Below the pieces are notes generated by a model. That model did no database searches, was not told the origin of the DNA, and saw nothing but the letters and a program-made list of their open reading frames with translations. A DNA stretch of 64,000 nt, from NCBI GenBank assembly GCA_019058445.1, contig JAHPZA010000003.1, positions 484,919-548,918 of the forward strand. Reading direction: 5' to 3'. The stretch comes from Promethearchaeota archaeon (lineage in GTDB: Archaea; Asgardarchaeota; Lokiarchaeia; Sigyniarchaeales; SOKP01). A program made the translations under genes and the position numbers. Positions 20,015 to 61,110 of the stretch are shown here, in pieces (the stretch's first letter is position 1; every line of letters starts with the position of its first letter).

Positions 20015-20018
20015 GAAA

Positions 20019-21906: not shown

Positions 21907-21943
21907 AATTAAAACTAATAATAGAAAAAAGGTTGATAAAAAA

Positions 21944-38492: not shown

Positions 38493-39779
38493 CTATTTAG
38501 GTTCATAATCCTCTGGATTTAATAAAGCGAAGAATATGATGCCAACATTTTGCATTATTGCTAAGAATAAAAAGACAATAAAAAAGCTTGCAGTCATCCG
38601 AAATATTATTCCCGTAATAAAAAGTCCCAAAACTACTCCGATATTGGTAAATGCCATACAAATTGCAAAATAAGTCCCTATCATTTCAGGATGTTTTTTT
38701 GATATTTGACCTGTGACACCAGTATAACTTGAAATGCGGATGCCCATTGCAAAACCAATTAAACCGGCAAAAAAGAGCAGTACTCCAATTCCAATTAAGT
38801 TGATATCAATTAAAATTAATAATATTGTAACAGTCGATAATAAAAATGAAAGATATACACTTATTCTCCTTGAAAGAAGATCAGATAATCGTCCCCCTAA
38901 TACTGAACCAACAATTATCCCAATACTCGTAATAAGGCTTATATTAGCTTGGTACACATATAAAGATGCCTCTGTTCCTCCTAATGACAAAGATCCTCCC
39001 GGCTTTAATTCGATTAAATTCATTTGAATTAAAATATAGATCGATAAGAATATAAAAATCACTTGATTGAGCAGTGAATTAAAAATCGAGTATAAATAAA
39101 CCTTCCAATCTCTGCTGTTATTAAACATGCTTTTCATATGGGATCCTATTTGAACTTCAGGATATGTTGTTGCTACTTTTATTGTAAGTATTAAAAAAGC
39201 TACAATTATTAATAAAATTCCAACAATCACAAAAACTAATTACACAGTTAAAACTTCAAAAATAACTACTAGATAAAGGAAAATAGGACCCCCCGTTACA
39301 GTGCCTATTGCTCTTGTACCAAAACAATACCCTTGAGTTCTTCCTAATTTCTCTTTTGGACAAATATCAAGAATAAAAGCATCAGTAGCAGTATCAATAA
39401 TATACAAAGTTAAAAATATGATAAAACCCAGTATTGATATAATTACTAAAACGTTAGTAGGAGTTATCAATATAGGCAGAGCAATAAATAAAAATCCAGA
39501 TATAATTCCTGCAACTAAAATCCAAGGCTTTCGTCGACCAAGTTTCTTCGTACCAAACCTATCAGTTAATATACCATAAATGAATTTCATTAGAATAGGT
39601 GCTGCCACAATAGTCGCTAAAAAGGCTAGATCGCTGGCATCTAAGGTTCCTATAAATCCTATTAAGAAAACAGGAATAATGACTGCGAAGGTACTCATAA
39701 CTATGCCTTGCATGAGATAGTTTATGGTGAAAACTAAAGTATATGATGATTTGTATTCAATATCTTCTTCACTAGCCAT
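38493..39779 (-). pseudogene. AmpG-like MFS transporter interrupted by one in-frame TAA
   Basis: ORFs 39240..39779 and 38493..39230 share a frame: ...FEVLTV*LVFVIVG... with TAA at 39240-39242. Joined length is about 428 aa, with MKFIYGILTD..GRRKPW and D.ATDA motifs. Confidence 0.8.
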
Positions 39780-39913: not shown

Positions 39914-41338
39914 ATGACTATTATCAGACCAAAAATTCAATTGTTAGATGAGAAACATAAAGCACAAATTCTTCTAGAAGCTAAAAATATTCTTGAAACT
40001 CTCGGAGTCTATATAGAAAATGAGCAAGCGATTGAATTATTAAACAGTAATGGATTAAACCATAAAAATTCGCGCTTTTTCCTTCCATCTGATTTAGTAG
40101 ATAAGTGTTTAGGGGATGTTCCATCCGAAATTATTTTATATGATAGAGAGAGTGAAGAAAACCTCTCATTGAGAGATGATAATTCCTATTTTAATCCTGG
40201 ATCTGCTGCGATGCATATTTTAGATGATGCTACTTATCAGAGAAGAAAGGCAACTACTCAAGATTTTATCCGTTTTTCTAAAATTGTTGAGCAATTAAAG
40301 TATATTGAGGCTCAGAGTACCGCATTAATCTGTAATGATATCCACATAGAGGCTCAAGATTGGCATAGGTTATTGATCTGTTTAACAAATTGCTATAAAC
40401 CAATTATTACGGGTACATTCCGTAAAGAAAGTTTCAAAATCATGCGAGAGCTCCTTCTTGCCTGCCGATTATCTGAGGATGACTTAGCGAGAAAGCCGTT
40501 GGCTATCTTCGATGCTGCGCCTTCTCCACCTTTAAAATGGACGGATCTCACAACCCAAGCCATAATTGACGGAGCGAAAAGTAGGATTCCCGTGGAATTT
40601 GTATCAATGCCTTTAGGAGGAGCAAATGCTCCAATTACATTAATAGGTTCGATCACCCAAATCTGTGCTGAGAACTTAGCTGGGATAGTAATTTCCCAAC
40701 TAACAGCTCGCGGAGCCCCTCTCATATGGGGAGGTTCTCCATCAATGTTAGATATGAAATATGGAACACCACCAATGAGTGCAATCGAATCGATGATGGT
40801 AAATATTGGTGGTGTTGAAATGGGTAAATATTTGAATATGCCCACACATGCTTATATGAGTGTAAGCGACTCAATGATTCCGGATACTCAAGCAGGTCTT
40901 GAAGCAGGAATGGGTATATTACTTGGAGCATTAGCCGGAATAAATGTAAATTCCGGTCCTGGAATGTTAGAATTTGAAATTACTCAAAGCATTGAGAAAC
41001 TATTAATTGATAATGAAATTGTTGGTATGGTAAAAAGATTTTTATCTGGAATTGAAGATTACGGGAAGCCTTTTGCGTCAGATATTTTACAAGATTATCA
41101 AAAGAAGGAACAACTACTTACACACCCGACAACCAAGAAGTTATTTAAGACAGAATTATTTTTACCAAGTTCTATAATTAATAGAATGTCCTATAGTATG
41201 TGGAAAAATTCCGGAGAAAAATCAACAAGGAAGAGAGCTATGGAAGAAGCCTCCAAATTAATAAAAAAGCCTCCGATAAAACCCATTAAGGAAATTCTGC
41301 GAAATGAATTAAATAAAATTGCGTCTAATTATTTATAA
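39914..41338 (+). CDS. MttB-superfamily (non-pyrrolysine) methyltransferase
   Basis: PSPPLKW, GANAPITLIG, AENLAG, GAPLIWG, DMKYG, SDSMIPDTQAGLE; no in-frame TAG. Confidence 0.9.
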   Translation: MTIIRPKIQLLDEKHKAQILLEAKNILETLGVYIENEQAIELLNSNGLNHKNSRFFLPSDLVDKCLGDVPSEIILYDRESEENLSLRDDNSYFNPGSAAMHILDDATYQRRKATTQDFIRFSKIVEQLKYIEAQSTALICNDIHIEAQDWHRLLICLTNCYKPIITGTFRKESFKIMRELLLACRLSEDDLARKPLAIFDAAPSPPLKWTDLTTQAIIDGAKSRIPVEFVSMPLGGANAPITLIGSITQICAENLAGIVISQLTARGAPLIWGGSPSMLDMKYGTPPMSAIESMMVNIGGVEMGKYLNMPTHAYMSVSDSMIPDTQAGLEAGMGILLGALAGINVNSGPGMLEFEITQSIEKLLIDNEIVGMVKRFLSGIEDYGKPFASDILQDYQKKEQLLTHPTTKKLFKTELFLPSSIINRMSYSMWKNSGEKSTRKRAMEEASKLIKKPPIKPIKEILRNELNKIASNYL

Positions 41339-41385
41339 TAAAAATAAAATTTTTTATAGAAATTTGATTTTAATTAAAGAGAAAG

Positions 41386-42039
41386 ATGAATATGTCTCAA
41401 GAGAACATATATAGAGAAATTTCCGCAGCAATAGTAGAGTTAAATAAAGAAAAAGCTATACAAATGGCAAATAAAGCCATAGATGAAAGGATGAATATAT
41501 TAGATGTGATTGAGAATGGTTTTGCAGAAGGTATTCGACGAGTCGGAGAGTTATGGGATGAGGGGGAATTTTTTTTACCAGAATTAATGATGGGTGCTAA
41601 AATTATGCAAGAATGTTTAGAACTTCTTATGCCCCATTTAGAGAGAGGAGTAGAAAGAAAAACACTAGGAAAAGTCGTCATAGCTACTATTGAGGGAGAT
41701 ATACATTCAATAGGGAAAACGATTGTAGCCACAATGTTAAGAGCTTATGGATTCGAAGTTTTTGATATAGGAGCAGATGTTCCAGTAGATAAAATTATAG
41801 ATACTGCCATTGAAAAAAATGCTGACGTAATTGGAATTTCAGCTCTACTTACAACAACCATGATCGGTCAAAAAAAAGTTATAGAAGTTTTAAAAGAAAA
41901 AGGAATCGCTGATAAATTTAAAGTGATTCTGGGGGGCGCACCAATAACAGGTGAATGGGTTAAAGAATGTTGTGCCGATGGCTACGCCGGAAACGCTGTG
42001 GAAGCCGTTAACCTAGTCAAATCCTTATTAAGTAAATAA
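41386..42039 (+). CDS. Methyltransferase cognate corrinoid protein (MttC/MtgC-like)
   Basis: FLPELMMGA cap, GDIHSIGK (DxHxxG), SALLTTT, GGAP. Confidence 0.93.
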   Translation: MNMSQENIYREISAAIVELNKEKAIQMANKAIDERMNILDVIENGFAEGIRRVGELWDEGEFFLPELMMGAKIMQECLELLMPHLERGVERKTLGKVVIATIEGDIHSIGKTIVATMLRAYGFEVFDIGADVPVDKIIDTAIEKNADVIGISALLTTTMIGQKKVIEVLKEKGIADKFKVILGGAPITGEWVKECCADGYAGNAVEAVNLVKSLLSK

Positions 42040-42080
42040 ATAGAAGTACAGAGGAGATAAAGCTGCTTTTTTATGATTGG

Positions 42081-42950
42081 TTGAATAACGAATCTAAGGT
42101 TATTTTATTCGATGGCGCAATGGGCACAGAAATCATTAAGCGAGGAATAGAGCCTGGTAAAATTCCAGATATTTTGAATATCGAACAGCCAAATCTTATT
42201 ACAGAGATACATAAAGCATATTTTAGTGCCGGATCAGACATATGCCAGACCTGTACTTTCGGATCTACACCATTAAACTTACAGCATTATAATTTAACTG
42301 AAAAATTTAAAGAAATTAATCAAAAAGCCTTAGACAATATTCTATTAGCCCGTCCTCCTGATCGAATAATCGCGGGAGATATTGGACCAACTGGAGAATT
42401 TAAACCTCCTGTAGGAAATGCGACACTAGAACAATGGTATCAGAGTTTTTATGAGCAATCGAAAATATTAGATAAGTATATTGATGTATGGCACATCGAA
42501 ACAATGTCCGATTTGGATGAAATGCTCACAGCTGTAAAAGCAATCAAAAGAATTTCTCAAAAACCAATTATGAGTTCAATGACTTATAGGAAAACAAAAA
42601 GGGGGTATTTTACTATTATGGGAGATTCCTTGGAAAAATGTATTAAATCATTAGAAATGAGTGAGGTAGATGTAATTGGAACAAATTGTACTATTGGATC
42701 AAAAGATATGATTGGTTTAATTGAAGAATCCGTGAAAATAACCAACAAACCACTTTTAGTAAAACCCAATGCTGGTCTCCCTAGGCTCGATACAGGTGAA
42801 AAAACATATTATGATCAATCGGTTGAGGAATTTGTTGAAGATATTTGTATAATGATTGATTTAGGGGTAAAAATAGTGGGAGGATGCTGTGGAACTTCGC
42901 CAGAGACAATTAGAGAAATCCGTAAGAGCATTGACTTATTATATTCTTGA
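42081..42950 (+). CDS. Stand-alone homocysteine S-methyltransferase domain (MetH N-terminal-like)
   Basis: TTG start; FDGAMGT, GDIGPTG, IETM, GTNC, PNAGLP and GGCCGT Zn ligands. Confidence 0.9.
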   Translation: MNNESKVILFDGAMGTEIIKRGIEPGKIPDILNIEQPNLITEIHKAYFSAGSDICQTCTFGSTPLNLQHYNLTEKFKEINQKALDNILLARPPDRIIAGDIGPTGEFKPPVGNATLEQWYQSFYEQSKILDKYIDVWHIETMSDLDEMLTAVKAIKRISQKPIMSSMTYRKTKRGYFTIMGDSLEKCIKSLEMSEVDVIGTNCTIGSKDMIGLIEESVKITNKPLLVKPNAGLPRLDTGEKTYYDQSVEEFVEDICIMIDLGVKIVGGCCGTSPETIREIRKSIDLLYS

Positions 42951-42991
42951 TTTTAAGTATTAAAAAGCTTATTGAACGAAGTAATTAAATC

Positions 42992-44467
42992 TTAAGCTTT
43001 AAATTTAAAATTTATTAATTCTTTTTCAGCTCTAGTAAGAATTTCATTTAATTTTTGTACGGTAGTCTCAGATAACTGTTCTGGTTGGTGAGATTCAAGT
43101 ATTTCAAGTGTTTTCTGATTTACCTTATCTCCATAAGGTTTTTTTCCTTTTTTTATCCACGATTCTGGATCTTCACGATTTAGAAATTTAGGACGCCATA
43201 ATTCTTGACGAAAGTGTTTCAAAGTATGTTCTTCAGAGAGAAAATCTCCACCTGGACCAACCTTTCGAATTACATCAATAGCCATCATTTCCTGATCGAT
43301 ATTAAAGCCGTTTATAAGCTTTTTTACATAACTTATAATCTCATTACACATAACTATTGAAGCGGGATTTCCCAACAGTCCTTGACCTAAATATCCAATA
43401 TCATGTATTAAATTGGCTCCATCAAGGGCAGATAACAATGTTCCGAATGCATGTTCCATAGCTGCCTGCTGATCAAGACAATGAGAATCAGAACCCGTTG
43501 TAGACCACATTGGAATATTATAATAGTGAAAGATATCTGCAAATGCAGAGTTTGTCAAACGAGTAGCAGGATCTCCATAAGAGAAAGTTGAGTATCTCAT
43601 ATCTAATGGAATTACTCCAAATCCTGAGATTATTGGAGCCCCCTTGTTCTTAAGTTGATGTAAAACAATCCCACTTAAAGCTTCAGCATTAGCTTGTACA
43701 ATTCCGCCGCCCAATGTAACTGGAATGCTTGCTCCAAGAATATCTCCTGGTGTATAGCATATTGGAATACTTTTCTCAGCACACAAAAATACCTTATTTA
43801 CTGCTCCATAAGAATGTGTCAAAGGAGCAGTTGGTTCAGAATAATGAATAAGAAAAGGCTTTTTTTTTAGATTTTCCTCTCCACCAGCTATAATTTCTGC
43901 CATTTCTATAATGTACGAAAGATCCTCTTTTCCAGCTGCAGTAAAGAATATAGGTTTAATGGAATTTTCCATCATCGCTTTTACACAATTAATATACATT
44001 AAATTAGACGGTACATCACTCGGTAAGCCAAAAGAAGCAATAAAATCTACATTCTCGCAATAATCCGAGACTTTAGCTGCATTAATTACGTCTTGTAATA
44101 GAGATAATCTTATTTCTTTAGTGTGTAAATCATATGTACGAATTAAGTCCGTTCCGGTCCCAAAATGGATATTCCTTCCCTCCAATTGCATTACCTTTTC
44201 TCCTTTTCTATTAAATATTGTAATTTGAGAAGGAGCACTGCGTAAACATTCTTCCACTAACCAATTAGGTATACGTACAATGTTATTATCTTCCACGATG
44301 CACTCGGAATTCTCTAATAATTTTAAACCTTGCTCGTGTGATATACGAACACCGATAGTTTCCAATATCTCCAAACTGGCTAGATGAATTTTTTTAATTT
44401 GGCTTTCTGTTAAAAGCTTAAAGTTTGGTTTACACTGTGTTTTGAAATTTTCAATCATCTTAATCAA
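42992..44467 (-). CDS. MttB-superfamily (non-pyrrolysine) methyltransferase
   Basis: IHLASLEILETIG, EPTAPL, NAEALSG, DMR, SDSHCLDQQAAME, IRKVGPGGDFL. Confidence 0.9.
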   Translation of the reverse strand: MIKMIENFKTQCKPNFKLLTESQIKKIHLASLEILETIGVRISHEQGLKLLENSECIVEDNNIVRIPNWLVEECLRSAPSQITIFNRKGEKVMQLEGRNIHFGTGTDLIRTYDLHTKEIRLSLLQDVINAAKVSDYCENVDFIASFGLPSDVPSNLMYINCVKAMMENSIKPIFFTAAGKEDLSYIIEMAEIIAGGEENLKKKPFLIHYSEPTAPLTHSYGAVNKVFLCAEKSIPICYTPGDILGASIPVTLGGGIVQANAEALSGIVLHQLKNKGAPIISGFGVIPLDMRYSTFSYGDPATRLTNSAFADIFHYYNIPMWSTTGSDSHCLDQQAAMEHAFGTLLSALDGANLIHDIGYLGQGLLGNPASIVMCNEIISYVKKLINGFNIDQEMMAIDVIRKVGPGGDFLSEEHTLKHFRQELWRPKFLNREDPESWIKKGKKPYGDKVNQKTLEILESHQPEQLSETTVQKLNEILTRAEKELINFKFKA

Positions 44468-44545
44468 ACCTCAGATTAGACTAATATAATAATTTTTAGT
44501 ATTAAAAACTTTTAAATAAATTCAAATCTAAATAATAATTCGATT

Positions 44546-45973
44546 ATGTTTGCAAAAGTCCTTACAAAACCACAAATTGATCAAATTCACCAGGCATCAC
44601 TTAGTATTCTAGAAAGAACTGGAGTGATAATTCCCCATGAAGAAATTTTAGCTAAGTTTGGTAAACACGGGGCAGTTGTAAATGCTAAGGAAAACCATGT
44701 AAAAATACCCTCTGAGTTAGTTATGGAACTCGTTTCAAAAGCGGGGAAAAACTTTACCCTTTATGGAAGAGATATTTCGAATAAAGCTGAATTCGGATCA
44801 GGTAAACGGAACTATAATACCACTGCTGGACAAGCTTTCTGGATCGATAATATCGGGGATAATCGAAGATACACATGTATGGATGATGTTACTACTGCCG
44901 TGAAGTTTAGCGATGCGCTAGATCAAATAACAATTCCAGGAGCAATGGCAGATCCACATGAAATACCAGTGGAGTGGAGATGCGTTGCTGTAGCAACGGA
45001 AGCCATTAAAAATACTTCAAAACCAATCATGTTTTGGTTCCATGATAGAGCTTCGGCAAAATATTTAATAGATTTGCTTATCGCATTAAGGGGAGACGAG
45101 AAAAAAGCTGAAACCTATCCTTTATTTTTTCCGTTTCTTGAACCTATAAGTCCTTTGAGCTTTCCCTTCAACGGTATAGACCTTTTATTCGAAACAGCAC
45201 GTTTAAATATTCCAGTTCCTATTGGTCCCATGGCACAGATGGGCTTATCTGCTCCATCAACATTAGCCGGAACCATGGCCCAAGAAAATGCTGAAGTATT
45301 AGCTGGGATATGTGTCACCCAACTTATACGTGAAGGGATGCCAATTTGTTATGGGGGTATATGCCATGCATTTGATATGAAAACCGTACAAATGATATTT
45401 TCAGGGCCGGAACAAGCAATTTTTAGCGTTGCGATGAGTCAGATGGGTAAATTTTATGGTTTTCCGGTATATATTAATGCGGGATTAACAGACTCGAAGA
45501 GTCCCGATGCTCAAGCAGGTTTGGAATGCGGATTAACCTTAGCAATGGGTGCTGCTGCCGGTGCTGATATCTTCGGACATATGGGGATATGTGGGATGGA
45601 TCAGGCAAGCTCTTTAGATTTTCTTATAATGCAATCTGAAATTATTTCATATGTAGAAAGTATGATGAGAACAATAAACTTCACAAAAGAAACTTTTGCT
45701 ATGGATTTAATCGATGAAACTGGACCTAAAGGCTCATTTTTACACAAACAACATACTCGTAAACATTTTAGGAAAGAACTATGGTTTCCTAGCTTGCTAG
45801 ATAGAAGAGATTATAAAGCATGGCGTGAAAAAGGAACTAAAACTATGGAGCAACGTTGTCGCGAGCGAAAAGATGAAATTATAGCAAACTATAAACCTAT
45901 GCAATTACCAAATGATATAGCACGCGAACTGGATGAGATTGTTAGGACCGCAAAGCAAAACTTAAAACAGTGA
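44546..45973 (+). CDS. MttB-superfamily (non-pyrrolysine) methyltransferase
   Basis: IHQASLSILERTG, EPISPL, APSTLAG, NAEVLAG, AGLTDSKSPDAQAGLE. Confidence 0.9.
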   Translation: MFAKVLTKPQIDQIHQASLSILERTGVIIPHEEILAKFGKHGAVVNAKENHVKIPSELVMELVSKAGKNFTLYGRDISNKAEFGSGKRNYNTTAGQAFWIDNIGDNRRYTCMDDVTTAVKFSDALDQITIPGAMADPHEIPVEWRCVAVATEAIKNTSKPIMFWFHDRASAKYLIDLLIALRGDEKKAETYPLFFPFLEPISPLSFPFNGIDLLFETARLNIPVPIGPMAQMGLSAPSTLAGTMAQENAEVLAGICVTQLIREGMPICYGGICHAFDMKTVQMIFSGPEQAIFSVAMSQMGKFYGFPVYINAGLTDSKSPDAQAGLECGLTLAMGAAAGADIFGHMGICGMDQASSLDFLIMQSEIISYVESMMRTINFTKETFAMDLIDETGPKGSFLHKQHTRKHFRKELWFPSLLDRRDYKAWREKGTKTMEQRCRERKDEIIANYKPMQLPNDIARELDEIVRTAKQNLKQ

Positions 45974-46043: not shown

Positions 46044-47420
46044 ATGTTCAAAAAGTTTGTTGGTCCTTCAAGATGGTTTAAGCTTGAAGAGATTTATGAT
46101 GAAACTACTCTTGAAACCCAGATTAATGAGGATAAAACTTTTGAAAGTAAGGTAAGAAAAGGCAAAAAAGTCCGCTTCATAGATCTAGTCTTTACAAGTC
46201 AAAATTGGCATGATTCAATATGGAAACATCGAGCCAGAATTTATATTCCTGAGAATTATCAAAAAGACGGTAATGTAGCTATTATTGGAGCTCATAAAGA
46301 TTTTTGTCCAGAAAAAAACTATATCGTGGGAGGAATTGATGGAGAAGATTTACCTCAATTCAATAGAGGTAAAATCCTAGGGCAAAACAATCAGCCAACA
46401 GAATTAAATACAGAAAGTGAATTCTGCGAGGGGACTGCCATTGATCTTGGTATACCGATAATGTTATTTAACACGCCAGGGGATATAATATTTGGACTAG
46501 ATGAATCTGATTTAATGGGTTACGGCTTAAAAAAGTTGGGAGAAACTTTCGACCTCACGTGGTTTCCATATCTTCCAATTGTAATTTCATATCTTCGAGC
46601 AATTACTCTTTTTCATTCTTTACCCGAAGTGAAAGCACAGCGAGCAGTTCTTTTCGGAAATTCAAAACGAGGTGTGTCAGTTAGTCTATCTACTGGTGTT
46701 GATCCGGACAGAGTTGCAGGTATATTATGTACCGGCGCTCATGGAGGGAATACTCTTCATATGATATTAATGAAGTTTGCGCAGTTGGGTCCTGATGTAG
46801 GTGGTCCCGCTATCGAAAGAGCAGGTCCTGGATTTTTACCAGCTGAGCGATTATTGGAAATCCTAAATTCCGCGGCAGGATTTTTCCTTCTTATGTCATT
46901 TGATCCCTACATTTGGAGGAAACAAATTAAAGCAGCATATATGATAGCCATTGGAACGAATGATGAATTCACGGGATTAGGAGCTCCCGATGGTATGATT
47001 AAAAATATGGAGGGTGACAAAGCACTCTTATATATAGATAATCTTCCTCACACGTGGACTTCACTTAAACATCTTTCTGCTTGGAGGATGCTTATCTCTC
47101 ATGCCTTTTATAATCGAGAGATTCCTCTCATTGAGGTCAATAAAAATGTCCAAAATTCGCACCTGTATGTCAACGCTAAAATAAACAATTTTAATGAAAT
47201 AAAAGGTGTGAAATTATTTTACTCATTTAATAAATCATCTGATTGGCGATTTTCCCAATGGGAATCTATTCCAATGAATTTTGAAGATGGTGAGTATAAA
47301 GCGGTACTTCAAGTAAGAAAGGATATGAAGCTAGCCTATTATGTAGAGTTAGAAAATTATCATGAAAAAGGAGGAATTGGTTATGTTAGTACACCAATTT
47401 CTTTTGAAGGATGGAATTAA
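46044..47420 (+). CDS. PqaA (PhoPQ-activated)-family alpha/beta hydrolase
   Basis: WKH...IYIP, GNSKRG nucleophile elbow, GTNDEF, NLPH. Confidence 0.7.
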   Translation: MFKKFVGPSRWFKLEEIYDETTLETQINEDKTFESKVRKGKKVRFIDLVFTSQNWHDSIWKHRARIYIPENYQKDGNVAIIGAHKDFCPEKNYIVGGIDGEDLPQFNRGKILGQNNQPTELNTESEFCEGTAIDLGIPIMLFNTPGDIIFGLDESDLMGYGLKKLGETFDLTWFPYLPIVISYLRAITLFHSLPEVKAQRAVLFGNSKRGVSVSLSTGVDPDRVAGILCTGAHGGNTLHMILMKFAQLGPDVGGPAIERAGPGFLPAERLLEILNSAAGFFLLMSFDPYIWRKQIKAAYMIAIGTNDEFTGLGAPDGMIKNMEGDKALLYIDNLPHTWTSLKHLSAWRMLISHAFYNREIPLIEVNKNVQNSHLYVNAKINNFNEIKGVKLFYSFNKSSDWRFSQWESIPMNFEDGEYKAVLQVRKDMKLAYYVELENYHEKGGIGYVSTPISFEGWN

Positions 47421-47424
47421 AGAT

Positions 47425-49389
47425 TTATAATGGGTTAATCGTTTCAAATAAATGAGTAAATTTAGATTTTTTTCTATAAAATACCGGTGGACTCCCAATG
47501 GAAGCTTCTATTTCATGCCATCCTTTTCCATATTCCTTATCAGACCATATGTGAATCCATTGATCTTCAGGAAGATATACTTTCCAAACAGTAATCTTAG
47601 GTTTAATAACAGGAGCCACAAGCAAATCTCTTCCCAATAAATATTGGTACTTTAATTTATGTAATTCGGGATCATTTCCATAATGGAGATAACAAGCCCG
47701 TATTGGTGAGATGCCTGTTTCTTGATATTCCTTTGAGAGTTCTTTCAAATATGGTTTCAAATGAACATGCATATTAACCATTTTGGCTAGGTGAGATAAA
47801 GTCTCCTGATCACCATCAAATTGCCAATTATTCTGAGGTCTATTACCCTCATGAGTACGCATTATCATTGAAAAGGCAGCCCATTCTGCTCCGCGTAGAA
47901 ACATCTCTTTTGTTCTTTTATATGGACCATATGTAGTGTATCCTCCAATATCATAACAGTAATAGCCTATTCCACATAATCCTACTGAAATACCACATGG
48001 AATGACCGTTGCTATTCCATTTATTTCATTCCAATCCTCAAGCTGATCCCCTGAAAAATAACACATTATATATTTAGACGCATGTGAAAATCCTGATCTA
48101 TTGAATACAAAAACATCGTGTAATTTTTGTTCCTCATCTAAAATTTCATACACGACTTTCGCAAATTCGACGGGATAATAATTATGATATTCTTCAACAC
48201 CCATATCTGAATGTATTATTATATCAGCATTTACTGGAAGGTATTCTCCATAATCATGCATCCAGCCTGAGAGTCCTATATCAAGCAAATTTTTTTTTAT
48301 TATAGTTTTGAACCATTCGAATGCATCTGGATTTGATATATCTAAGATGCAGGTTGGAAAGTCTGTGGTATATATAATTAAATCTTCGCCTTCTTTGTTT
48401 TTCACACAATACCCTTTTTTGGAAGCTTCCAAATACATGGGAGCGTCAATTGGCAAAAATTGGTTCATATACCCTAAGAACTTAATGTTCCTTTTATTTA
48501 AGGATTTTATAAACTCTGGCAAATCTGGATAACTTTTTTTTTCATATTCCCAATTCCAAAATAATTGCTGACCAAATGAGGTCATACGAATCCCTTGCCA
48601 ATCTTGACACCATGCTGCTATTACTTTAATCCCAGCATCAATTGCTTTATTGATTTTAGTCTCGACTATTTCATTTCCCCCTTGAATTCCCATGATAAGC
48701 CCATCATATACCCAGTCGGGCACTGGCGGTTGGCGACCAAAATAATCCGATAAATAACTTATTACAGAAATTGCTGTTTCAAATTTACCAATTATAATCT
48801 TCTTTGGCACTTCCCAAATAAGCAATTCATGGAATTTTTCGTTAATAAAATTAAATTCAGAATAATAGGTTGTTTCTACATGGCAGAAGTAGTTAGATTT
48901 TCCAGCTGAGATAAAAGTAGGAAATGGGAAATATGTATACTTTGTATGCCCAACGGGGGAGTGATCCTCAACCCATATAGGAATTTTATAGCCCCTCAAA
49001 TTTAATTCTGAAAATTGTGATCCGCAACCATAGATTGCCTCTTCAGATCCTGCTGAGAGTGACATCCAAAATCTATTAATAATCGGATCTTTAGCTGCTG
49101 GTATGATTTCTAAGTGATTATCCTTTATTCTACAAATGAGATTTAATATTTTATCCTTTCTTGAAAGATTAATTTTAATCTCATTATCAGTGGTATTAAT
49201 AATATTAAATTCATTAAGTTCAATCTTTTCTTCCACATTATCTTTTATCTTAAACTTATGATTTTTTAGTCTATAGAGAGCTTTTCCAATTCCAATTTTA
49301 AAGCAAGGCTTATTGGAACTGTGATGTAAAAAAAGATGACCTTTATAATATATCTTGAATTCATCCTTGGAATATTCAAGCTTTAACAT
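47425..49389 (-). CDS. GH31 sulfoquinovosidase (YihQ/SftG)-like alpha-glycosidase
   Basis: GIQGG, WCQDWQGIRMTSFGQQLFWNW, GWMHDYGE (nucleophile), GDQ..DW (acid/base), DIGGYTT and MRTHEGNRP, all YihQ-type motifs. Confidence 0.85.
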   Translation of the reverse strand: MLKLEYSKDEFKIYYKGHLFLHHSSNKPCFKIGIGKALYRLKNHKFKIKDNVEEKIELNEFNIINTTDNEIKINLSRKDKILNLICRIKDNHLEIIPAAKDPIINRFWMSLSAGSEEAIYGCGSQFSELNLRGYKIPIWVEDHSPVGHTKYTYFPFPTFISAGKSNYFCHVETTYYSEFNFINEKFHELLIWEVPKKIIIGKFETAISVISYLSDYFGRQPPVPDWVYDGLIMGIQGGNEIVETKINKAIDAGIKVIAAWCQDWQGIRMTSFGQQLFWNWEYEKKSYPDLPEFIKSLNKRNIKFLGYMNQFLPIDAPMYLEASKKGYCVKNKEGEDLIIYTTDFPTCILDISNPDAFEWFKTIIKKNLLDIGLSGWMHDYGEYLPVNADIIIHSDMGVEEYHNYYPVEFAKVVYEILDEEQKLHDVFVFNRSGFSHASKYIMCYFSGDQLEDWNEINGIATVIPCGISVGLCGIGYYCYDIGGYTTYGPYKRTKEMFLRGAEWAAFSMIMRTHEGNRPQNNWQFDGDQETLSHLAKMVNMHVHLKPYLKELSKEYQETGISPIRACYLHYGNDPELHKLKYQYLLGRDLLVAPVIKPKITVWKVYLPEDQWIHIWSDKEYGKGWHEIEASIGSPPVFYRKKSKFTHLFETINPL

Positions 49390-49412: not shown

Positions 49413-50732
49413 TTACTTAATTATTTTCCATCCTATAATTTTGGAAAACATCTCAAAAGGTTTTATGAAATCTCCATAGACAACTGAAATATGATGTGCA
49501 ATTCCATTGTGAATAATTTTATGTAATACATCTCTTATTTTTTCTTGAAATACGACTTTTGCATAAGTACCCTTTAATTCTTTTTCCATAAAAATAGCCT
49601 CTCCTTTTTGGACAAATATTCGATATTCGTCTGGAGGAGCATAATCGATTCTTAAAAGTGAAAGTTCTCCGGGTTTCATGACAAAATCTGCAGTCACTCC
49701 TTTTCCACCCGCAAAATAAGTATCTAAAGATCTGATACATTTACCATCCCACAAATTGCATGCTGCAACACCACAATGCCATAATAATCCATAATTTTCT
49801 TCAAAATTCACTTGTGAAAAATCAGCTAAAAACGGAGTTTCTGCTCCAATAGCTTTATGTGCTAACATAGATAAACTGCCTAGAATGTCTCCCTCACAAG
49901 TTAAGATTTTTCCTTCGGCTTGTAAAATAGACATCGCAGCACATGGAGATATTCCAAATTTTTGTGCAAATTCAGGCCAACATCGCACGGCTATAGAGTT
50001 TAGGTTATTCTCTTTCATAAATGTTTCAAATTTGATTACTAATTCAGCCACTTTTTCAACTTGACTAGTGTTTACTCCTGAAATGTCGAATATAGTTTCA
50101 ATTTGCGTTTTTCTTTCTGGAAGTTTATGATAATCAATGATTTGATTAAATACATCACTTAACTGATAATACTCAATTAAAATTCCTAAATGCTTGTATA
50201 AATCAAGCTCATCGACGTCTAGATTAAAAAATCCGTGAGCTCTGGAGCCTATTATCCCTACGTGAGAACTTGAAAATGCTTTGATTATCCTTATTGCATC
50301 TAACCAATCCTCGTCAATCTCATCCCCTATAACTACATGATAATTTCTTATACCTGCTTTATACAGATTAGACGCATTCAAGTTAATCCCACAGACTGAA
50401 TTGAGTCTAATTTTTCCACCATCATAGGGTAATTCATATAAACCCCACAATAGAATTGGTCGGTTGATAACTTTATTTAATTCTAAAATCAAATGCCCTA
50501 AAGCAAAAGTTCCGCTAATACAAATCAAGCCATCTATTTGCTTAGATGCTAAATGATGTGCTGCATTTTGTGCTTCTTCAATTTCGATGACTAACTCCGG
50601 GATAATTTCCCAATTTATATTTTCAATAGATTTAAGTTTCACTTGAATATCTTGATAAATCTCAAACGCCACCTCGAAATCGAATGTTTTTCTGGCAATG
50701 CACACTACTCCTATTCGAATTTCTTGCTTCAT
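49413..50732 (-). CDS. L-fucose-isomerase-fold aldose/ketose isomerase; SQ isomerase (SftI/SqvD)-like
   Basis: ARKTFD, GG.IRLNS, RCWPEF, CEGD, WHCG and HHIS motifs; sits between the SQase-like and transaldolase genes. Confidence 0.8.
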   Translation of the reverse strand: MKQEIRIGVVCIARKTFDFEVAFEIYQDIQVKLKSIENINWEIIPELVIEIEEAQNAAHHLASKQIDGLICISGTFALGHLILELNKVINRPILLWGLYELPYDGGKIRLNSVCGINLNASNLYKAGIRNYHVVIGDEIDEDWLDAIRIIKAFSSSHVGIIGSRAHGFFNLDVDELDLYKHLGILIEYYQLSDVFNQIIDYHKLPERKTQIETIFDISGVNTSQVEKVAELVIKFETFMKENNLNSIAVRCWPEFAQKFGISPCAAMSILQAEGKILTCEGDILGSLSMLAHKAIGAETPFLADFSQVNFEENYGLLWHCGVAACNLWDGKCIRSLDTYFAGGKGVTADFVMKPGELSLLRIDYAPPDEYRIFVQKGEAIFMEKELKGTYAKVVFQEKIRDVLHKIIHNGIAHHISVVYGDFIKPFEMFSKIIGWKIIK

Positions 50733-50830: not shown

Positions 50831-51499
50831 TTACAATGTGCCAAGTTCGGTATCATCCCACGCATCTTGGAATATTTTTAATCCTCGATCTGTAAAGGGA
50901 TGGTCGAAACTCGCCTTGTAAACTTCAAATCCTGCCGTTACAATATCAGCTTCCATAACTGCTGCCTCCACGATCTGCTTGCCATTACGTACGGCAGCGA
51001 CAATAATTTCTGTATCGAAATCATAATTTTGATATATAGTCACAATATCTGAAATCAGTTGAGTGCAATCTACACCCGAAGCTTCTTGCCAGCCTATAAA
51101 TGGAGAACAATATGCCGCACCTATTCTTCCTACCTGTAATGCTTGTGATGCTGTAAAAACGAGCGTCACATTTACTTTAATACCCTCTTCTGTAAGATCC
51201 TTCGCTGCGATTAACCCATGCTCTGTACAAGGAATCTTTATCACAAAATTTTTAGAGATTGCTGCGATTTTCTTGGCCTCAGAGATCATATCATCTGAAT
51301 TCTGAAGGTGTGGGTCTATTTCTACAGAAATAGGAAAATCAATATTCTTAAATTCCTCAGCAAATTCTTTAATCACGTTAAAAAATGGCTTTCCCGAATT
51401 TTTGATGTGTTTCGGATTTGAAGTAACACCATCAATCTTCCAATTCTTTAAAGCATATTTTATTTCTTCTAATTTGGCACTATCAAGAAAATACTTCAT
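50831..51499 (-). CDS. Transaldolase, sulfofructose-transaldolase (SftT/SqvA) type
   Basis: D6, E60 and Schiff-base K88. NPKH, SPFIGW and AAVR replace canonical NPSL, SPFVGR and ASIR. Confidence 0.85.
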   Translation of the reverse strand: MKYFLDSAKLEEIKYALKNWKIDGVTSNPKHIKNSGKPFFNVIKEFAEEFKNIDFPISVEIDPHLQNSDDMISEAKKIAAISKNFVIKIPCTEHGLIAAKDLTEEGIKVNVTLVFTASQALQVGRIGAAYCSPFIGWQEASGVDCTQLISDIVTIYQNYDFDTEIIVAAVRNGKQIVEAAVMEADIVTAGFEVYKASFDHPFTDRGLKIFQDAWDDTELGTL

Positions 51500-51633: not shown

Positions 51634-53049
51634 TTAGCGATAGATACCTAATTCTTTTAACTTCTTTATTAATGCTTCCTTCTCGGCTCCCTCAAGCGTG
51701 TAGTTTTTCCTAAACATTAATCCCATCACTACAAATATAAGTCCTGGAATTAATTGAGCGTGAATTCGAATTCCCCATTGAGCTACGAGAGATTGAGTTG
51801 CATGTGGATCAGGATTGTATGCAGTAAGAATGTGTATTGTTGGAATGATAATCCCAACTGCTACAAATGCGAGACGAAAGAAAAATGTTCTTACTCCAAC
51901 CAAACTTGCATCAACACGTTTTCCCATTTTTGATGCAACTAAATCATAGGTATCAGAAGCAACAGGTTGTAGCATGGTAACTTCACCAGAATAAAATATG
52001 GCACCTATAAAAGCAATTATGACGAGTATGATATAAAATAAAGGAAATCCATATTCTCTTAACACAAATAACGCAGATAAGATAAAAATCCCGTGACAAA
52101 TAAATGTAAGCCAATATGTCTTCTTAAAGCCATGCTTCCGAGTATAATTACTCCAGAATGGTACAGCAAATACAAAAGCTGCTACACCTAACAATGTAGG
52201 CAGAATTGCATATGTTAAGGGTAATTGCCAAACATCTTTATACATATAAATACTGGATACCCCCTGTAATGCTATTGCAATACTATAACATGTATATCCT
52301 GCTAATGATACTCTAAAATTCTTTGTTTTAAGCGCTGTTTTCATTGTCCCATAAAAACTGCTTTCTTTTTCTACATAACCCCGTAGAAACATTTGTTTCA
52401 TCTTATCTGATTCTTTTATTCCAAGTAAAAGAAATACATTATATATTACCAGAAGGATAATCATTATTGTTGCAAATGTAACAAACGAGGTCCTATCTCC
52501 ATATACTATAATTGCGTTTCCTATTACGGTCATAGTAGTCATTAAAATACCCATTAAAATCGTTGCTATCGCAAATGATCTTCTACGCTCGTATTCTGAA
52601 GGGAATTGGTTAGTGTAACCTCCATAAACATGGTCATTATAAATAGAGAAAAAAGTATCGAAAAGACATGTTATAACTATAAACCATATAAATAAAGTCA
52701 TCTCACTTGCTCCTTCAGGTGGGACCCAAATAAGAAAATAAAATAACAAAATCGGGAAAGCCGTAATTACAACCCAAGGAGCTCGTAAACCCCATCTCTG
52801 TGTCCATTTAAGAGGTTTATCTGTAAGATACCCTAATAGGGGATCATTTATCATGTTCCATATTGCAAATATAACGTACGCGACCCCTAATAGCGCAACT
52901 GATATACCAATCTCGACTTCATAATAGTAAAACACGAGAGAAAAGCCACGCATTAACAAAAAATTTATAATAAGGTAGCCAAATGCATATGATAACATTT
53001 TACCTGTAGATGCGATTTCCCATTCACTTAAATCTTCTTGAACAGCCAT
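51634..53049 (-). CDS. MFS GPH-family symporter
   Basis: WNMINDPLLGYLTD, GVRTFFFR, YNPDP...WGIRIH. Confidence 0.9.
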   Translation of the reverse strand: MAVQEDLSEWEIASTGKMLSYAFGYLIINFLLMRGFSLVFYYYEVEIGISVALLGVAYVIFAIWNMINDPLLGYLTDKPLKWTQRWGLRAPWVVITAFPILLFYFLIWVPPEGASEMTLFIWFIVITCLFDTFFSIYNDHVYGGYTNQFPSEYERRRSFAIATILMGILMTTMTVIGNAIIVYGDRTSFVTFATIMIILLVIYNVFLLLGIKESDKMKQMFLRGYVEKESSFYGTMKTALKTKNFRVSLAGYTCYSIAIALQGVSSIYMYKDVWQLPLTYAILPTLLGVAAFVFAVPFWSNYTRKHGFKKTYWLTFICHGIFILSALFVLREYGFPLFYIILVIIAFIGAIFYSGEVTMLQPVASDTYDLVASKMGKRVDASLVGVRTFFFRLAFVAVGIIIPTIHILTAYNPDPHATQSLVAQWGIRIHAQLIPGLIFVVMGLMFRKNYTLEGAEKEALIKKLKELGIYR

Positions 53050-53321
53050 TTATTTTCACCTTTTATTTGAAAGAATTTGATTAGATTTTGATAAGAAATT
53101 GAATGTTTACTGAAAAGTATATATTTTATTTTACTATGGATCTTGTGATATATTTAAAGTTTTTGAAGTAGATTAATAGAAATCAGTAATCAATCCCTTT
53201 TTCCTTTTCTGAAAATCTTTTGTTCTTTTCCTTAAATATAAAGGAATTTAACAATAAAACTCCTTAAGATATTTAAGTAATTAAAAAAATAAAAAAGATT
53301 TTTAATTTATTCATCTCCTTT

Positions 53322-54725
53322 TTAATATAACCCCATTTCCTTAAGCTTTTTCACCATTTCTGCTTTTCTTTCTCCCTCTAATGTATACCATTTATATACA
53401 ATAAGGGAAATCGTTAACATTAATAGCGCAGGAATTAATCCAGCATGAATTCGTATTCCTATAATTGCTAGCGGCGTCTGTGTTGCATTTGGATCCGGAT
53501 TATAGTTCGTCACGATATGTATCACGGTGATTACTACTCCTTGAACTACGATAGCAATTCTAAAGAAAAAATTCCTTATTCCCTGAAGTGTTCCGTCTTG
53601 GCGTCTGCCCATTTCCGTAGAGACCTCGTCCATAGTGTCGGAAGCTACTGGCATTGTCATGAGAGTATAACCCGCATAGGGAATTCCCCCTATAAACGTA
53701 AAGATAACAGCTTGCCATATATTCGTTATGAATAATGTGGGGATATAACAAATGCCAGCAAAAAACAGAGCTGTGTAGTATGTTTTTTTAAAACCGTGTT
53801 TTCTGGCATAATTAGACCAGAATGGAATCGAAAGCATATAGCCCGCGAAACCTGCAAGTGCTGTGAGTACTGCATATGTGTAAGGTACTTTAAATACATC
53901 TTTCAGCATATAAATCCCTGAAGCGGTTGCTAAGGTCTGAGCTGTAATGATAGTGGTATATGTGGTAAGAGAGATTGCAAAATTCCTTTTTTTAATTGCT
54001 GTTTTCATGATACCAAAAAAGCTGGTATCTTCGGCAGTTTCGAATCCCTTGATAAGCTTTTCTTTTAATTCATCAGATTCTTTAATTCCAAGAAAGAGAA
54101 AAATATTACATATCGCAAGAATTATTACTACAACTAAGGCTGATACCGCAAAGGAACTCTTGTTTCCATACTCTATAATAAAAGGCGGGATTATTGCTAT
54201 ACCAACCACTCCGATTCCTGCGACTGCTATGATTACGGCAAATCCCCTTCTTCGCTCATATTCTGTGCGAAATTGGTTTGTAAAACCTCCATAGACATGA
54301 GTATTGAAAATAGAGAAGAATGTATCAAATAGAGCAGTAATTATTAGCATGTAAAAAAATATAGTTAACGCATTTTCCTTAGGGTCAATGTTAGGCGGAG
54401 TAAAGATTAAAAAATAACAAATTAAAATTGGAAAACTAGAAAGAACAACCCAAGGAGCTCTAAATCCATATTTCCTCGTCCATTTTCTTGGTTTATCGGT
54501 AAAGTATCCTAAAAGGGGATCATTAAACATGTTCCATATTGCATACAGCACAAAAGCAATGCCTACGAATAAGACGGGTAACCCTACTTCCACTTCATAG
54601 AAATAAAAAACGATCGCAGAATATGCACCTAGTAAATAAGCAATAATAAGGTACCCAAATCCGTAGGATATCATTTTAGAGGTTGGTGCTATTTCCCACT
54701 CACTTAAATCTTCTTGAATAGCCAT
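53322..54725 (-). CDS. MFS GPH-family symporter
   Basis: Paralog with WNMFNDPLLG and GIRNFFFR. Confidence 0.9.
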   Translation of the reverse strand: MAIQEDLSEWEIAPTSKMISYGFGYLIIAYLLGAYSAIVFYFYEVEVGLPVLFVGIAFVLYAIWNMFNDPLLGYFTDKPRKWTRKYGFRAPWVVLSSFPILICYFLIFTPPNIDPKENALTIFFYMLIITALFDTFFSIFNTHVYGGFTNQFRTEYERRRGFAVIIAVAGIGVVGIAIIPPFIIEYGNKSSFAVSALVVVIILAICNIFLFLGIKESDELKEKLIKGFETAEDTSFFGIMKTAIKKRNFAISLTTYTTIITAQTLATASGIYMLKDVFKVPYTYAVLTALAGFAGYMLSIPFWSNYARKHGFKKTYYTALFFAGICYIPTLFITNIWQAVIFTFIGGIPYAGYTLMTMPVASDTMDEVSTEMGRRQDGTLQGIRNFFFRIAIVVQGVVITVIHIVTNYNPDPNATQTPLAIIGIRIHAGLIPALLMLTISLIVYKWYTLEGERKAEMVKKLKEMGLY

Positions 54726-54879
54726 TTATTTCACTATTAGTTTTTTTCAATATTTTTGTTTTAAATTGCGAATTTCCTAAATAATTATTATTTAAATGTT
54801 TAAAATTAAAAAGGTATCTTTTTAATAAGAAATGATAAATAAAATAAGTTTAAAAAAAAAAGAAATTTAAATTTTAAAA

Positions 54880-56289
54880 TTAACGATAGATACCCATTTC
54901 TTTTAGCTTTTTTACCAGCGCTTCTTTCTCTTTTCCTTCAAGAGTATAATATCTTTTAAATAGCAACCCCATGATAATCATCATGAGTCCCGGTATCAAT
55001 GCGGTATGAATACGGATACCTAATAGAGCTGTGGCAGTTTGATCTGCTGGCCCAAAAGCATTTGGATCGGTATTATACCCTGTTAAGAGATGGATGGGGA
55101 GTATTACAAGAAAAATAACAAGAAATGCTACACGAAAGAAAAAGGTTCTTATCCCAACCATGCTCGCGTCTACGCGGAATCCCATATGACTAGAGACCTC
55201 ATCATAGGTATCTGAAGCTACGGGCATGAGCATCGTGGTCAACCCAATCCCGTTTATTTGGAAGATAATATAACAGATTAAATGGGCCCAAAAGTTAGGA
55301 GTGAAAAAGAACTGTAGATATAAAATGCCTTGAAGTAAATAAGTTACCCAATAAGTTTTCCTGAATCCATGCTTTCGAGAATAGTTATACCAGAATGGTA
55401 TAGATAATATAGCAGCTGCGGTACCTAATAACGCGAGTAAGGTGTTCATTGCATAAGGCACCCCATACACATCCTTTAACATATATGCCATAGACGCGAG
55501 ATAGATGGTTTGAGCAGTTACCTGTATCGTATAACCCGCTAAGGATACCCGGAAATTTTTTGTTTTAAGGGCAGTTTTCAATGTACCAAAAAAACTAGCC
55601 TTCTCTGCTTTCTCATATGCGTTGATAAACATCTGTTTCATTTGTTCCGACTCTCTTATTCCAGGAAAAATAATTATACTGAAGATGGCCATAAGGATTA
55701 TCATCACCAAAGCACCTACTGCAAATGACGCTGGGTTTCCGAATTGTATTATTAAAGACCCGATAATAACCATACCGGTTATTACTAAAAACATTATAAT
55801 CGTTGCTATCGCAAAGGACCTACGGCGTTCGTATTCTGAAGGGAACTGGTTGGTGTAGCCACCATACACGTGGTCATTATAAATTGAGAAAAAAGTATCG
55901 AAAGCGCACGTCATAAGGATAAACCATAAAAACATCACCATAGCGCCCATGCCTTGAGGGGGTACCCAGATTAAGTAGAAAAATATAAATATTAGGGGAG
56001 TGCATACCACAACCCATGGAGCTCGTAATCCATATCGTGGTGTCCATTTCAAGGGCTTATCCGTAAGGAAGCCTAAGAGCGGGTCGTTCACCATGTTCCA
56101 TAAGGAAAATACTACGCCTGCAAGTATAATATAGATAGCAGCTAACCCCATTTCGACCTCATAAAAATAGAGTAGATTTGCCAAACCATATAAGAGGATA
56201 TAGTTGACAACAACATAGCCGAAACCGTAGGATATCATTTTTCCTGTGGAAGCAATTTCCCATTGACTTAAATCTTCTTCAATTGCCAT
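54880..56289 (-). CDS. MFS GPH-family symporter
   Basis: Close paralog of 51634..53049 (shared YNDHVYGGYTNQFPSEYERRRSFAIATI). Confidence 0.9.
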   Translation of the reverse strand: MAIEEDLSQWEIASTGKMISYGFGYVVVNYILLYGLANLLYFYEVEMGLAAIYIILAGVVFSLWNMVNDPLLGFLTDKPLKWTPRYGLRAPWVVVCTPLIFIFFYLIWVPPQGMGAMVMFLWFILMTCAFDTFFSIYNDHVYGGYTNQFPSEYERRRSFAIATIIMFLVITGMVIIGSLIIQFGNPASFAVGALVMIILMAIFSIIIFPGIRESEQMKQMFINAYEKAEKASFFGTLKTALKTKNFRVSLAGYTIQVTAQTIYLASMAYMLKDVYGVPYAMNTLLALLGTAAAILSIPFWYNYSRKHGFRKTYWVTYLLQGILYLQFFFTPNFWAHLICYIIFQINGIGLTTMLMPVASDTYDEVSSHMGFRVDASMVGIRTFFFRVAFLVIFLVILPIHLLTGYNTDPNAFGPADQTATALLGIRIHTALIPGLMMIIMGLLFKRYYTLEGKEKEALVKKLKEMGIYR

Positions 56290-56522
56290 TACTAATCACT
56301 TTGATTGATTTTAATTGCTTTTAAATATTGGATATTTTTTTTAAAATTGATGTTAATTTAACATTTTCGTTAAGTTCTATTTAAATATTTGTAAAAAAAC
56401 TACCTATCAAATTTCTAATATCCTAAGAAACCTAAGATCTCAATAAAGAAAAAAAGCAATCTTACCATTAAAAAAGAGCAATTCTTACCTAATTATTGGA
56501 AAAAAATTGAGATAATTAGTAA

Positions 56523-57020
56523 TTCTGATCATATATTGAAAAAAAATACGGGCATGTAAAAACGATGAAATTCGGTTCCTTATTGGTTGCAATTGCATTA
56601 ACTCCCGGAATGTGGATAACAACACTATGGGAAACCATATTATTTCAATTTTTAGGTGGGATCGCTTTTGGCGGCTTTATAATTATGATAGGACCGAGAA
56701 CTGCAGATGTAAATGATGAATTTACTGTTACTACAGGAAGAAATCAAGAAGAAATACTCGCGGGAATTCGCACGTTTTTCTTTCGATTTGCACTTATCTT
56801 TCAAGCGATAATTCTTACAACTGTACATGTCTTAACGGAATATAATCCCGATCCTCATGCAGTACAGACTCCTTTAGCTCAATGGGGAATACGTATACAT
56901 CTTGCTTTAATCCCTTCTTTATTAACATTATTGGGATTTTTCATCCTATATTTCTTTTATGATCTTAAAGGAGAAAAAAAAACATTTATTAAATCTCAGT
57001 TGCGTGAATTAAAACTATGA
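56523..57020 (+). pseudogene. 3' remnant of a GPH symporter
   Basis: Only the last ~4 TM remain. Upstream in-frame F*SYIEKKYGH (TGA at 56526) matches FWSNVSKKYGH of the 58813 paralog. Confidence 0.8.
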
Positions 57021-57201
57021 TGTTTATTTATTCTTAGAATTACATTAGTAAATCCTCTTCAAAAATAAGATAAGTATTGCAAAATAAACCTTTTTATATT
57101 GGTTTGATCTAATTCTATATTTAATTAGCATTGCTATTTTACATACTATATTGTAAAAAACACTTAAGGAAGCAATGGAATAATAAAATAAATGTGATAT
57201 A

Positions 57202-58614: not shown

Positions 58615-58812
58615 AAAATCTAATACTAAAAAAAAATTTTATTTTCTTTTTTCTTAATAATTGAATGTTATTCTATTAAAATTGATTTAGTACTATAAAC
58701 GGTTATAGGGAGCTTTTAAATATTAGTATAACTCAATTAATATATTAATTCTCAAATTACTAATTTGTAAAAGAGACATAAAAAAAAATAATAGAATGAA
58801 GGTGAAATTCTA

Positions 58813-61108: not shown

Positions 61109-61110
61109 GT

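Follow-up and report, generated by a model that had tools for sequence, protein, structure and literature searches.

The locus examined here raises the question of whether a glycosidase of the YihQ type can act on sulfoquinovosides when the arginine that binds the sulfonate is replaced by glutamine. Sulfoquinovose is a plant and algal sulfosugar that is freed by sulfoquinovosidases. The gene in question, which encodes a member of glycoside hydrolase family 31 (GH31), lies in a 64,000-nucleotide stretch from a Promethearchaeota archaeon (Asgardarchaeota; Lokiarchaeia; Sigyniarchaeales; GenBank assembly GCA_019058445.1, contig JAHPZA010000003.1, positions 484,919 to 548,918), referred to here as the window. 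In YihQ and related enzymes the sulfonate is held by a Q/E-RWY motif (PMC12780224). The window protein carries Gln275 in place of the arginine of this motif and Thr342 in place of a glycine, and it probably functions as a sulfoquinovosidase that binds the sulfonate in an alternative, uncharged pocket with Gln and Thr.

A YihQ-type glycosidase without the sulfonate-binding arginine

The GH31 protein (P0001) belongs by its domains and equivalog score to GH31 subfamily 13, the YihQ type. In a phmmer search of the PDB, its six top matches were all YihQ-type entries (8R56, 6PNR, 5AED/5AEE, and the Agrobacterium tumefaciens sulfoquinovosidase), four of which are named or published as sulfoquinovosidases; the E values were 3.5e-183 for 8R56, 1.2e-172 for Eubacterium rectale SftG (6PNR), and 1.4e-172 for YihQ (5AED), and the YicI xylosidases, next in the ranking, reached only 1e-42. 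The NCBIfam equivalog model for YihQ (PRK10426) gave 735.5 bits against a cut-off of 553, and Pfam domains PF13802, PF01055, and PF21365 mark the N-terminal, TIM-barrel, and C-terminal domains of GH31. Identity to Escherichia coli YihQ is 39% over the full length. The gene is the only YihQ-type gene in the genome (4.6 Mb, 92.6% complete), and its product is probably cytoplasmic, since no signal peptide is obvious by eye at the N terminus.

The residues of the YihQ active site were mapped onto the protein twice, with phmmer against 5AED and with MAFFT using the MG1655 gene from RefSeq, and both alignments yielded the same residue map. The gene and the residues that define its pocket are as follows.

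47425..49389, minus strand: YihQ-type GH31 glycosidase of the Gln/Thr pocket class, 654 amino acids, a single open reading frame (PDB phmmer, NCBIfam, and Pfam matches)
48604..48606, minus strand: Gln262, equivalent to YihQ Gln288, a pocket residue, retained (both alignments)
48565..48567, minus strand: Gln275, at the position of YihQ Arg301, the sulfonate binder (codon CAA; ttg on the plus strand)
48556..48558, minus strand: Trp278, equivalent to YihQ Trp304, a sulfonate binder, retained (both alignments)
48364..48366, minus strand: Thr342, at the position of YihQ Gly368 and the partner of Gln275 (codon ACA; MAFFT column map)
48253..48255, minus strand: Asp379, equivalent to YihQ Asp405, the catalytic nucleophile, in WMHDYGE (both alignments)
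48046..48048, minus strand: Asp448, equivalent to YihQ Asp472, the catalytic acid/base, in FSGDQ (both alignments)
47938..47940, minus strand: Tyr484, equivalent to YihQ Tyr508, which binds the sulfonate via water, retained (both alignments)

Residues 260 to 280 read WCQDWQGIRMTSFGQQLFWNW, and the interval 48556-48606 runs from Trp278 to Gln262. The original prediction had placed a glutamine at the sulfonate-binding arginine by residue spacing and a YihQ motif (FGKRVMWNW); the spacing and the motif are both correct, and the two alignments equate Gln275 with Arg301. It had also held that the tyrosine (in DIGGYTT) and both catalytic aspartates are kept, as Tyr484, Asp379, and Asp448 confirm. In the canonical Q/E-RWY pocket, YihQ position 288 takes Gln or Glu, position 304 Trp, position 508 Tyr, and position 262 Gln or Lys; the window protein has Gln262, Trp278, Tyr484, and Gln236 at these positions (the last equivalent to YihQ Gln262 in both alignments and likewise retained), and the arginine at 301 is absent. 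The gene is not filed here as a canonical RWY sulfoquinovosidase because Arg301 is replaced by Gln275. With Gln275, Thr342, and Trp278, it has instead the defining residues of a Gln/Thr pocket class (Gln at YihQ position 301 and Thr at 368, with Trp304 kept). Both catalytic aspartates and four of the five pocket residues are present in a full-length protein, and the best explanation of these features is that this protein is a catalytically intact retaining alpha-glycosidase of the YihQ lineage (CAZy GH31_13).

Gln275 is widespread rather than peculiar to this sequence. Among the 120 closest homologues, which are mostly metagenome proteins and of which the named ones are nearly all from Asgard archaea, the column contains Gln in 57, Arg in 54, Leu in 5, Asn in 3, and His in 1. 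The five closest homologues (P0002-P0006, 69 to 80% identical) all read GQQLFWNW, as do the same-genus orthologues L011 (73%) and L019 (82%). The original prediction proposed conservation in related Asgard orthologues as a check on the substitution, and these sequences, in which the glutamine is encoded as CAA or CAG, provide it. The residue is fixed in orthologues with synonymous CAA/CAG variation and thus is not a product of decay; it is under selection.

Pairing of Gln275 with Thr342

Column 342 is the top covariation partner of column 275, with a mutual information of 0.83 against 0.43 for the next column. Among 275 relatives, the two positions read Arg and Gly in 100 and Gln and Thr in 97, and the mixed states Arg with Thr and Gln with Gly were each seen in 0. 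For a Gln-type enzyme from a clostridium, 118 bacterial homologues included 75 with Arg and Gly and 41 with Gln and Thr, the two outliers being Glu with Lys and Arg with Glu. Column 342 is Gly in Arg-type enzymes (Asp in one Asgard clade) and Thr in Gln-type enzymes. On the alignments, Gln275 and Thr342 are a fixed paired trait of a large branch of GH31_13.

The two states have been exchanged repeatedly. Fitch parsimony on a FastTree phylogeny rooted with YicI required at least six switches between Arg/Gly and Gln/Thr. The bacterial Gln/Thr clade is nested within an Arg/Gly grade (support 0.995), and in the Asgard radiation Gln/Thr occupies the basal branches with Arg/Gly clades nested; this is a quick tree, and weight is put on the number of switches, not on their direction. 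The absolute dichotomy between the two states, with repeated switching between them, is new in this analysis.

Thr342 lies eight residues ahead of a conserved D-x-T/S-N-P and aligns (MAFFT) with YihQ Gly368 and YicI Trp380, in the insert or loop after barrel strand 3. We take the same column to be Trp481 of GAA. In the structure of GAA, Trp481 adjoins the active site from the tip of insert I (PMC5653652). Other positions track the Gln state more weakly: two residues beyond the acid/base, Asn is replaced by His in bacteria and by Arg in one Asgard clade, and in the clade of the window enzyme the W-A ahead of the acid/base becomes F-S.

Taken with the retained tryptophan and tyrosine ligands, the replacement of Arg301 and Gly368 by Gln275 and Thr342 suggests that the sulfonate would be held by neutral hydrogen bond donors (the Gln amide, the Thr hydroxyl, the Trp indole, and the Tyr via water) and not by a guanidinium group. 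Alpha-sulfoquinovosides, sulfoquinovosyl glycerol among them, are the most likely substrates of the enzyme. On the simplest interpretation, GH31_13 contains two alternative builds of the C6 pocket, Arg with Gly and Gln with Thr, both for sulfoquinovoside hydrolysis, and the window enzyme has the second. Of the options that the original prediction listed for the glutamine, a compensated sulfonate pocket is the best supported: Gln always occurs with the Thr of column 342, and Gln/Thr enzymes fill the sulfoquinovosidase slot of bacterial sulfoglycolysis clusters.

Gene context and the probable substrate of the Gln/Thr class

The genes adjoining the GH31 gene bear on what its pocket binds.

49413..50732, minus strand: SftI-like aldose-ketose isomerase with a fucose-isomerase fold, located upstream of the GH31 gene at a distance of 23 bases (NCBIfam NF048012)
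50831..51499, minus strand: sulfofructose-transaldolase homologue, 222 amino acids, with Lys30 (E value of 2.4e-94 to BmSF-TAL, 8BC3/8BC4)
51634..56289, minus strand: three sugar symporters of the GPH family (MFS_2), encoded upstream of the transaldolase gene (profile matches)
46044..47420, plus strand: PhoPQ-related protein resembling alpha/beta-hydrolases, its gene converging on the GH31 gene (Pfam PF10142)

Linkage to sulfoglycolysis genes, as expected of a canonical sulfoquinovosidase, is provided by the first two. The sulfoquinovose that the GH31 enzyme would free could be isomerized by the SftI-like isomerase, and the transaldolase would then cleave the product to fructose-6-phosphate and sulfolactaldehyde (SLA). 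The isomerase scores 236 bits with the SftI model NF048012, under its cut-off of 700, and a search by sequence found no solved relative; its identity is 56% with the isomerase of a Clostridium sulfo-TAL cluster and 71 to 73% with those of other Asgard clusters, including one beside a canonical Arg-type GH31 gene. Among Asgard clusters the isomerases are 68 to 80% identical whether the GH31 gene is of the Gln/Thr or the Arg type. The transaldolase is closer to BmSF-TAL (63% identity, counted from the alignment) than to ordinary transaldolases, which reach only 1e-48, and it retains D6/E60/K88 (BmSF-TAL D6/E61/K89) and the sugar-orienting N110/S132. The WAR motif that orients the sulfonate in BmSF-TAL, as it is cited in PMC11659671, is intact as W137, A169, and R171, the first corresponding to W138 of BmSF-TAL and the alanine and arginine having been placed on the window sequence by us. 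Its catalytic triad and WAR motif make it a member of the sulfofructose-transaldolase family.

Gln/Thr genes elsewhere have similar company. Of the bacterial Gln/Thr genes, five were read in context. In Clostridium sp. DL1XJH146 the locus comprises genes for TauE, a ROK regulator, a transaldolase, an SLA-reductase-like dehydrogenase, an SftI-like isomerase, an MFS_2 transporter, the GH31 enzyme, and DUF4867, a set that matches the sulfo-SFT cluster of E. rectale (PMC11968277). A second locus is of the transketolase type (isomerase, DUF4867, a split transketolase, and RpiB), and a third contains an isomerase, DUF4867, Fe-ADH, TauE, and RpiB. The neighbours of 20 Asgard GH31 genes were mapped by tblastn in surrounding stretches of up to 20 kb, and an isomerase and a transaldolase adjoin the GH31 gene in all eight Asgard Gln/Thr loci with readable flanks. 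Related Asgard Gln-type loci contain an isomerase, an AEC-family transporter, and an SLA-reductase-like gene, and the neighbours of canonical Arg/Gly Asgard genes come from the same families. None of these neighbours accompanies the remaining Asgard pocket classes, namely R/D-W-F, K-L-Y, and others that are more distant. In Asgard genomes, Gln/Thr is thus a sulfo-gene-linked class, which is new in this analysis.

The range of these further Asgard YihQ-type pocket classes is wide (R/D-W-F with DIGGFHS, K-L-Y, K-N-W, and T-R with DIGGLF, among P0001-P0120 and loci L042, L043, L050, L051, and L054), and some Asgard genomes contain four to five matches to the YihQ family model, partly distant or partial. 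A single-contig genome of the same order (G032) carries at 915444-917492 (L060) a distant YihQ-family homologue, 35% identical, in which FQIGFLF appears to replace the W-x-G-D-Q acid/base motif; judging from this replacement, it may be a non-catalytic relative.

Several observations weigh against a working sulfoquinovosidase. Single substitutions of Arg301 in YihQ are reported to abolish activity, and no assayed enzyme of the Gln/Thr class was found in the searchable literature. The proximity of Gln275 to Thr342 is predicted from covariation and homology, not from coordinates. The clade of the window enzyme is further altered, with YihQ Lys300 replaced by Gln (giving GQQ), His (H378) before the nucleophile, Cys (C478) at the equivalent of YihQ His502, and Y479, and at position 450 it has neither the His nor the Arg of other Gln/Thr clades. 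Clear sulfo genes are absent from two of the five bacterial Gln/Thr contexts. A search with one Asgard query turned up no SLA reductase in the genome, whose completeness of 92.6% leaves room for a missed gene, and the window is without a DUF4867 or TauE gene.

The alternative that survives best, and which we consider possible but unlikely, is that the Gln/Thr pocket and its cluster serve another alpha-linked sugar with a different group at C6, such as a 6-O-sulfate, 6-deoxy, or 6-carboxy sugar, plain glucose, or an epimeric sulfosugar. The original prediction had listed such retuning among its options, on the basis of the glutamine together with Lys30 of the transaldolase. The replacement of BmSF-TAL Arg30 by Lys is correct, and the hint drawn from it does not hold. 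Position 30 lies outside the published WAR motif and is Lys in 59 and Arg in 59 of 120 family members. A Lys30 transaldolase (P0562) shares a contig with a canonical Arg/Gly Asgard GH31 gene (P0114), and another occurs in Tepidibacillus marianensis, which has GH31 genes of the Arg/Gly type; these are comparisons within a contig and a genome, not of adjacent genes, and the contig of P0056 contained no transaldolase. Lys30 is therefore no sign of a changed substrate, being a family-wide polymorphism that also accompanies Arg-type GH31 genes; the rebuttal of this argument is likewise new in this analysis. What speaks for retuning is the loss of the canonical arginine itself, the further changes in the window clade, the existence of two discrete states such as two specificities would give, and the composition of these Asgard clusters, which are without an SLA reductase and include a pair of amidohydrolase and NagB-like genes in four loci and a sulfatase in one. 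The sulfatase had been considered as a pointer to a 6-O-sulfate substrate and was dropped, since a sulfatase also flanks a canonical Arg-type gene. Against retuning stand the otherwise complete sulfo-TAL and sulfo-TK clusters in which Gln/Thr enzymes are found, with TauE, SLA reductase, and DUF4867; no Arg-type GH31 gene is present in the stretches read around the Gln/Thr genes of these clusters, the linked transaldolases retain their WAR motif for the sulfonate, and the isomerases resemble those of Arg-type clusters as closely as they resemble one another. Because the window clade is the most remodelled of the Gln/Thr groups and is without the extra His or Arg, shifted specificity is, from its sequence, hardest to dismiss there.

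A more far-reaching proposal, which we regard as doubtful, is that Gln/Thr, far from being an equivalent solution for sulfoquinovose, marks a second specificity within sulfoglycolysis-type clusters, for the glycoside of another 6-substituted or epimeric sulfosugar that abounds in guts and anoxic sediments. On this view a parallel, undescribed pathway would be formed by the linked isomerase and transaldolase, and the Asgard archaea would have expanded the enzyme lineage into several further pocket classes.

The original prediction had also allowed for recent decay or an assembly error, noting that the CAA codon is one transition from CGA. The arithmetic is right; evolution did not take that route, since CAA or CAG encodes the glutamine of orthologues and AGA the arginine of the Arg-type Asgard relative (codon 274 of the window gene is CAG). 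The contig of the probable source run is identical over this stretch at a k-mer depth of 23, and another sample from the same study yielded a contig of 392 bases, assembled independently, that covers 48409-48800 and shows zero differences. Two further runs (X3 and X4) contributed no contig to the stretch; this check used Logan contigs, not raw reads, and rare variants would not show. Despite the proximity of CAA to CGA and the reported requirement for Arg301 in YihQ, an inactive relic or an error at codon 275 is very improbable, given an intact reading frame with both catalytic aspartates, a glutamine, encoded by synonymous codons, that is fixed in orthologues and in large clades alike, an identical contig from a second sample, an Arg-type codon that is not CGA, and the tight operon linkage kept by the sole copy in the genome.

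If the GH31 enzyme is indeed a sulfoquinovosidase, the SLA that it would ultimately yield may be oxidized. In a same-genus genome (G008, labelled Hermodarchaeota at NCBI), genes for a ferredoxin and an aldehyde:ferredoxin oxidoreductase stand between the transaldolase and the isomerase (L032, 5340-11965), and this insertion suggests a ferredoxin-linked oxidation of SLA to sulfolactate; no such variant has been described from bacterial clusters. The window genome itself contains more than 10 aldehyde:ferredoxin oxidoreductase paralogues, and a homologue of the AEC-family transporter (51% identical) lies about 19 kb before the window.

Other genes surround the cluster. The three GPH symporters are candidate glycoside importers; being only 20 to 27% identical to YihO, YihP, or the transporters of bacterial clusters, they do not allow a substrate to be inferred. 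Around the cluster there are six intact GPH (MFS_2) paralogues (35031-36422 and 51634-60222) and fragments at 38493-39779 and 56565-57020, and all share no more than 20 to 27% identity with YihO/YihP. A PF10142 gene likewise faces the GH31 gene tail-to-tail in an orthologous locus of 71% identity (L034, 9165-10529), and its product might deacylate a lipid form of the substrate; a bacterial Gln/Thr cluster (L063) has patatin and GDPD genes in its place. Three non-pyrrolysine MttB-family methyltransferases, a corrinoid protein, and a homocysteine S-methyltransferase (39914-45973) adjoin the sugar cluster, and MttB genes flank the orthologous GH31 gene in L032 and L034 too. An Hdr/Flx-like cluster of Fe-S flavoproteins (FlpD, CCG, and FrhB domains) occupies 10323-23056; such a cluster occurs 10 to 35 kb from the GH31 cluster in the window and on three Asgard contigs (L035, 19979-21956; L037, 13628-22001; and the P0078 contig), reflecting either conserved synteny or a functional link. 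The Amidohydro_2 and NagB-like genes form a tightly coupled pair close to Gln/Thr-type GH31 clusters in the window (60332-61959), L032 (3625-5248), L035 (3993-5617), and L049. The NagB-like protein is of the glucosamine-6-phosphate deaminase family (E value of 3e-19 to 5HJ5), and from these assignments the pair may constitute a second entry route (deacetylase and deaminase) for an amino-sugar analogue.

Comparison with known sulfoquinovosidases and sulfoglycolysis clusters

Neither a description of the Gln variant nor sulfoglycolysis in Asgard archaea was found in the searchable literature, and the archaeal Gln/Thr case is new in this analysis. If the Gln/Thr class is active, counts based on the motif miss many clostridial degraders and most Asgard candidates, and Arg301 would be one half of a two-residue switch and not essential. 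Sulfonate recognition without a charged ligand would become a testable structural question, and sulfoquinovose glycosides would gain support as a substrate of sediment Asgard archaea.

The closest known systems are YihQ, SftG (6PNR), the A. tumefaciens sulfoquinovosidase (5OHS/5OHY), and 8R56, all members of GH31_13 with the Q/E-RWY motif. The window protein shares their three-domain architecture, aligns with them over its full length (E values from 1e-141 to 1e-183), and has the catalytic aspartate pair and the Gln, Gln, Trp, and Tyr residues of their pocket. It is like SftG in being partnered by an SftI-type isomerase and a sulfofructose transaldolase. Unlike these enzymes, it has Gln for Arg301 and Thr for Gly368, and its clade also has Gln for Lys300, Cys for His502, and His before the nucleophile.

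A precedent for a departure from the motif is AmSqgH of Alteromonas macleodii, an active GH31 sulfoquinovosidase that lacks Q/E-RWY and lies outside subfamily 13 (PMC12780224). A Thr is predicted among its sulfonate ligands (PMC12780224). In contrast to the window enzyme, AmSqgH belongs to another GH31 clade, is about 28% identical to YihQ, has a predicted Arg and Lys, and is linked to the sulfo-SDO pathway (PMC12780224). Because AmSqgH is active without it, the Q/E-RWY motif is not the sole solution in GH31.

At the level of the pathway, the window resembles the sulfo-TAL and sulfo-SFT systems of Priestia megaterium/aryabhattai and E. rectale (SftG, SftI, SftT, SftR, SftE, and SftX) in grouping glycosidase, isomerase, and transaldolase in one co-oriented block. 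Unlike these bacterial systems, its host is an archaeon, the window is without the SLA reductase, the TauE exporter, and DUF4867, and the same-genus Asgard cluster places a ferredoxin and an aldehyde:ferredoxin oxidoreductase between transaldolase and isomerase.

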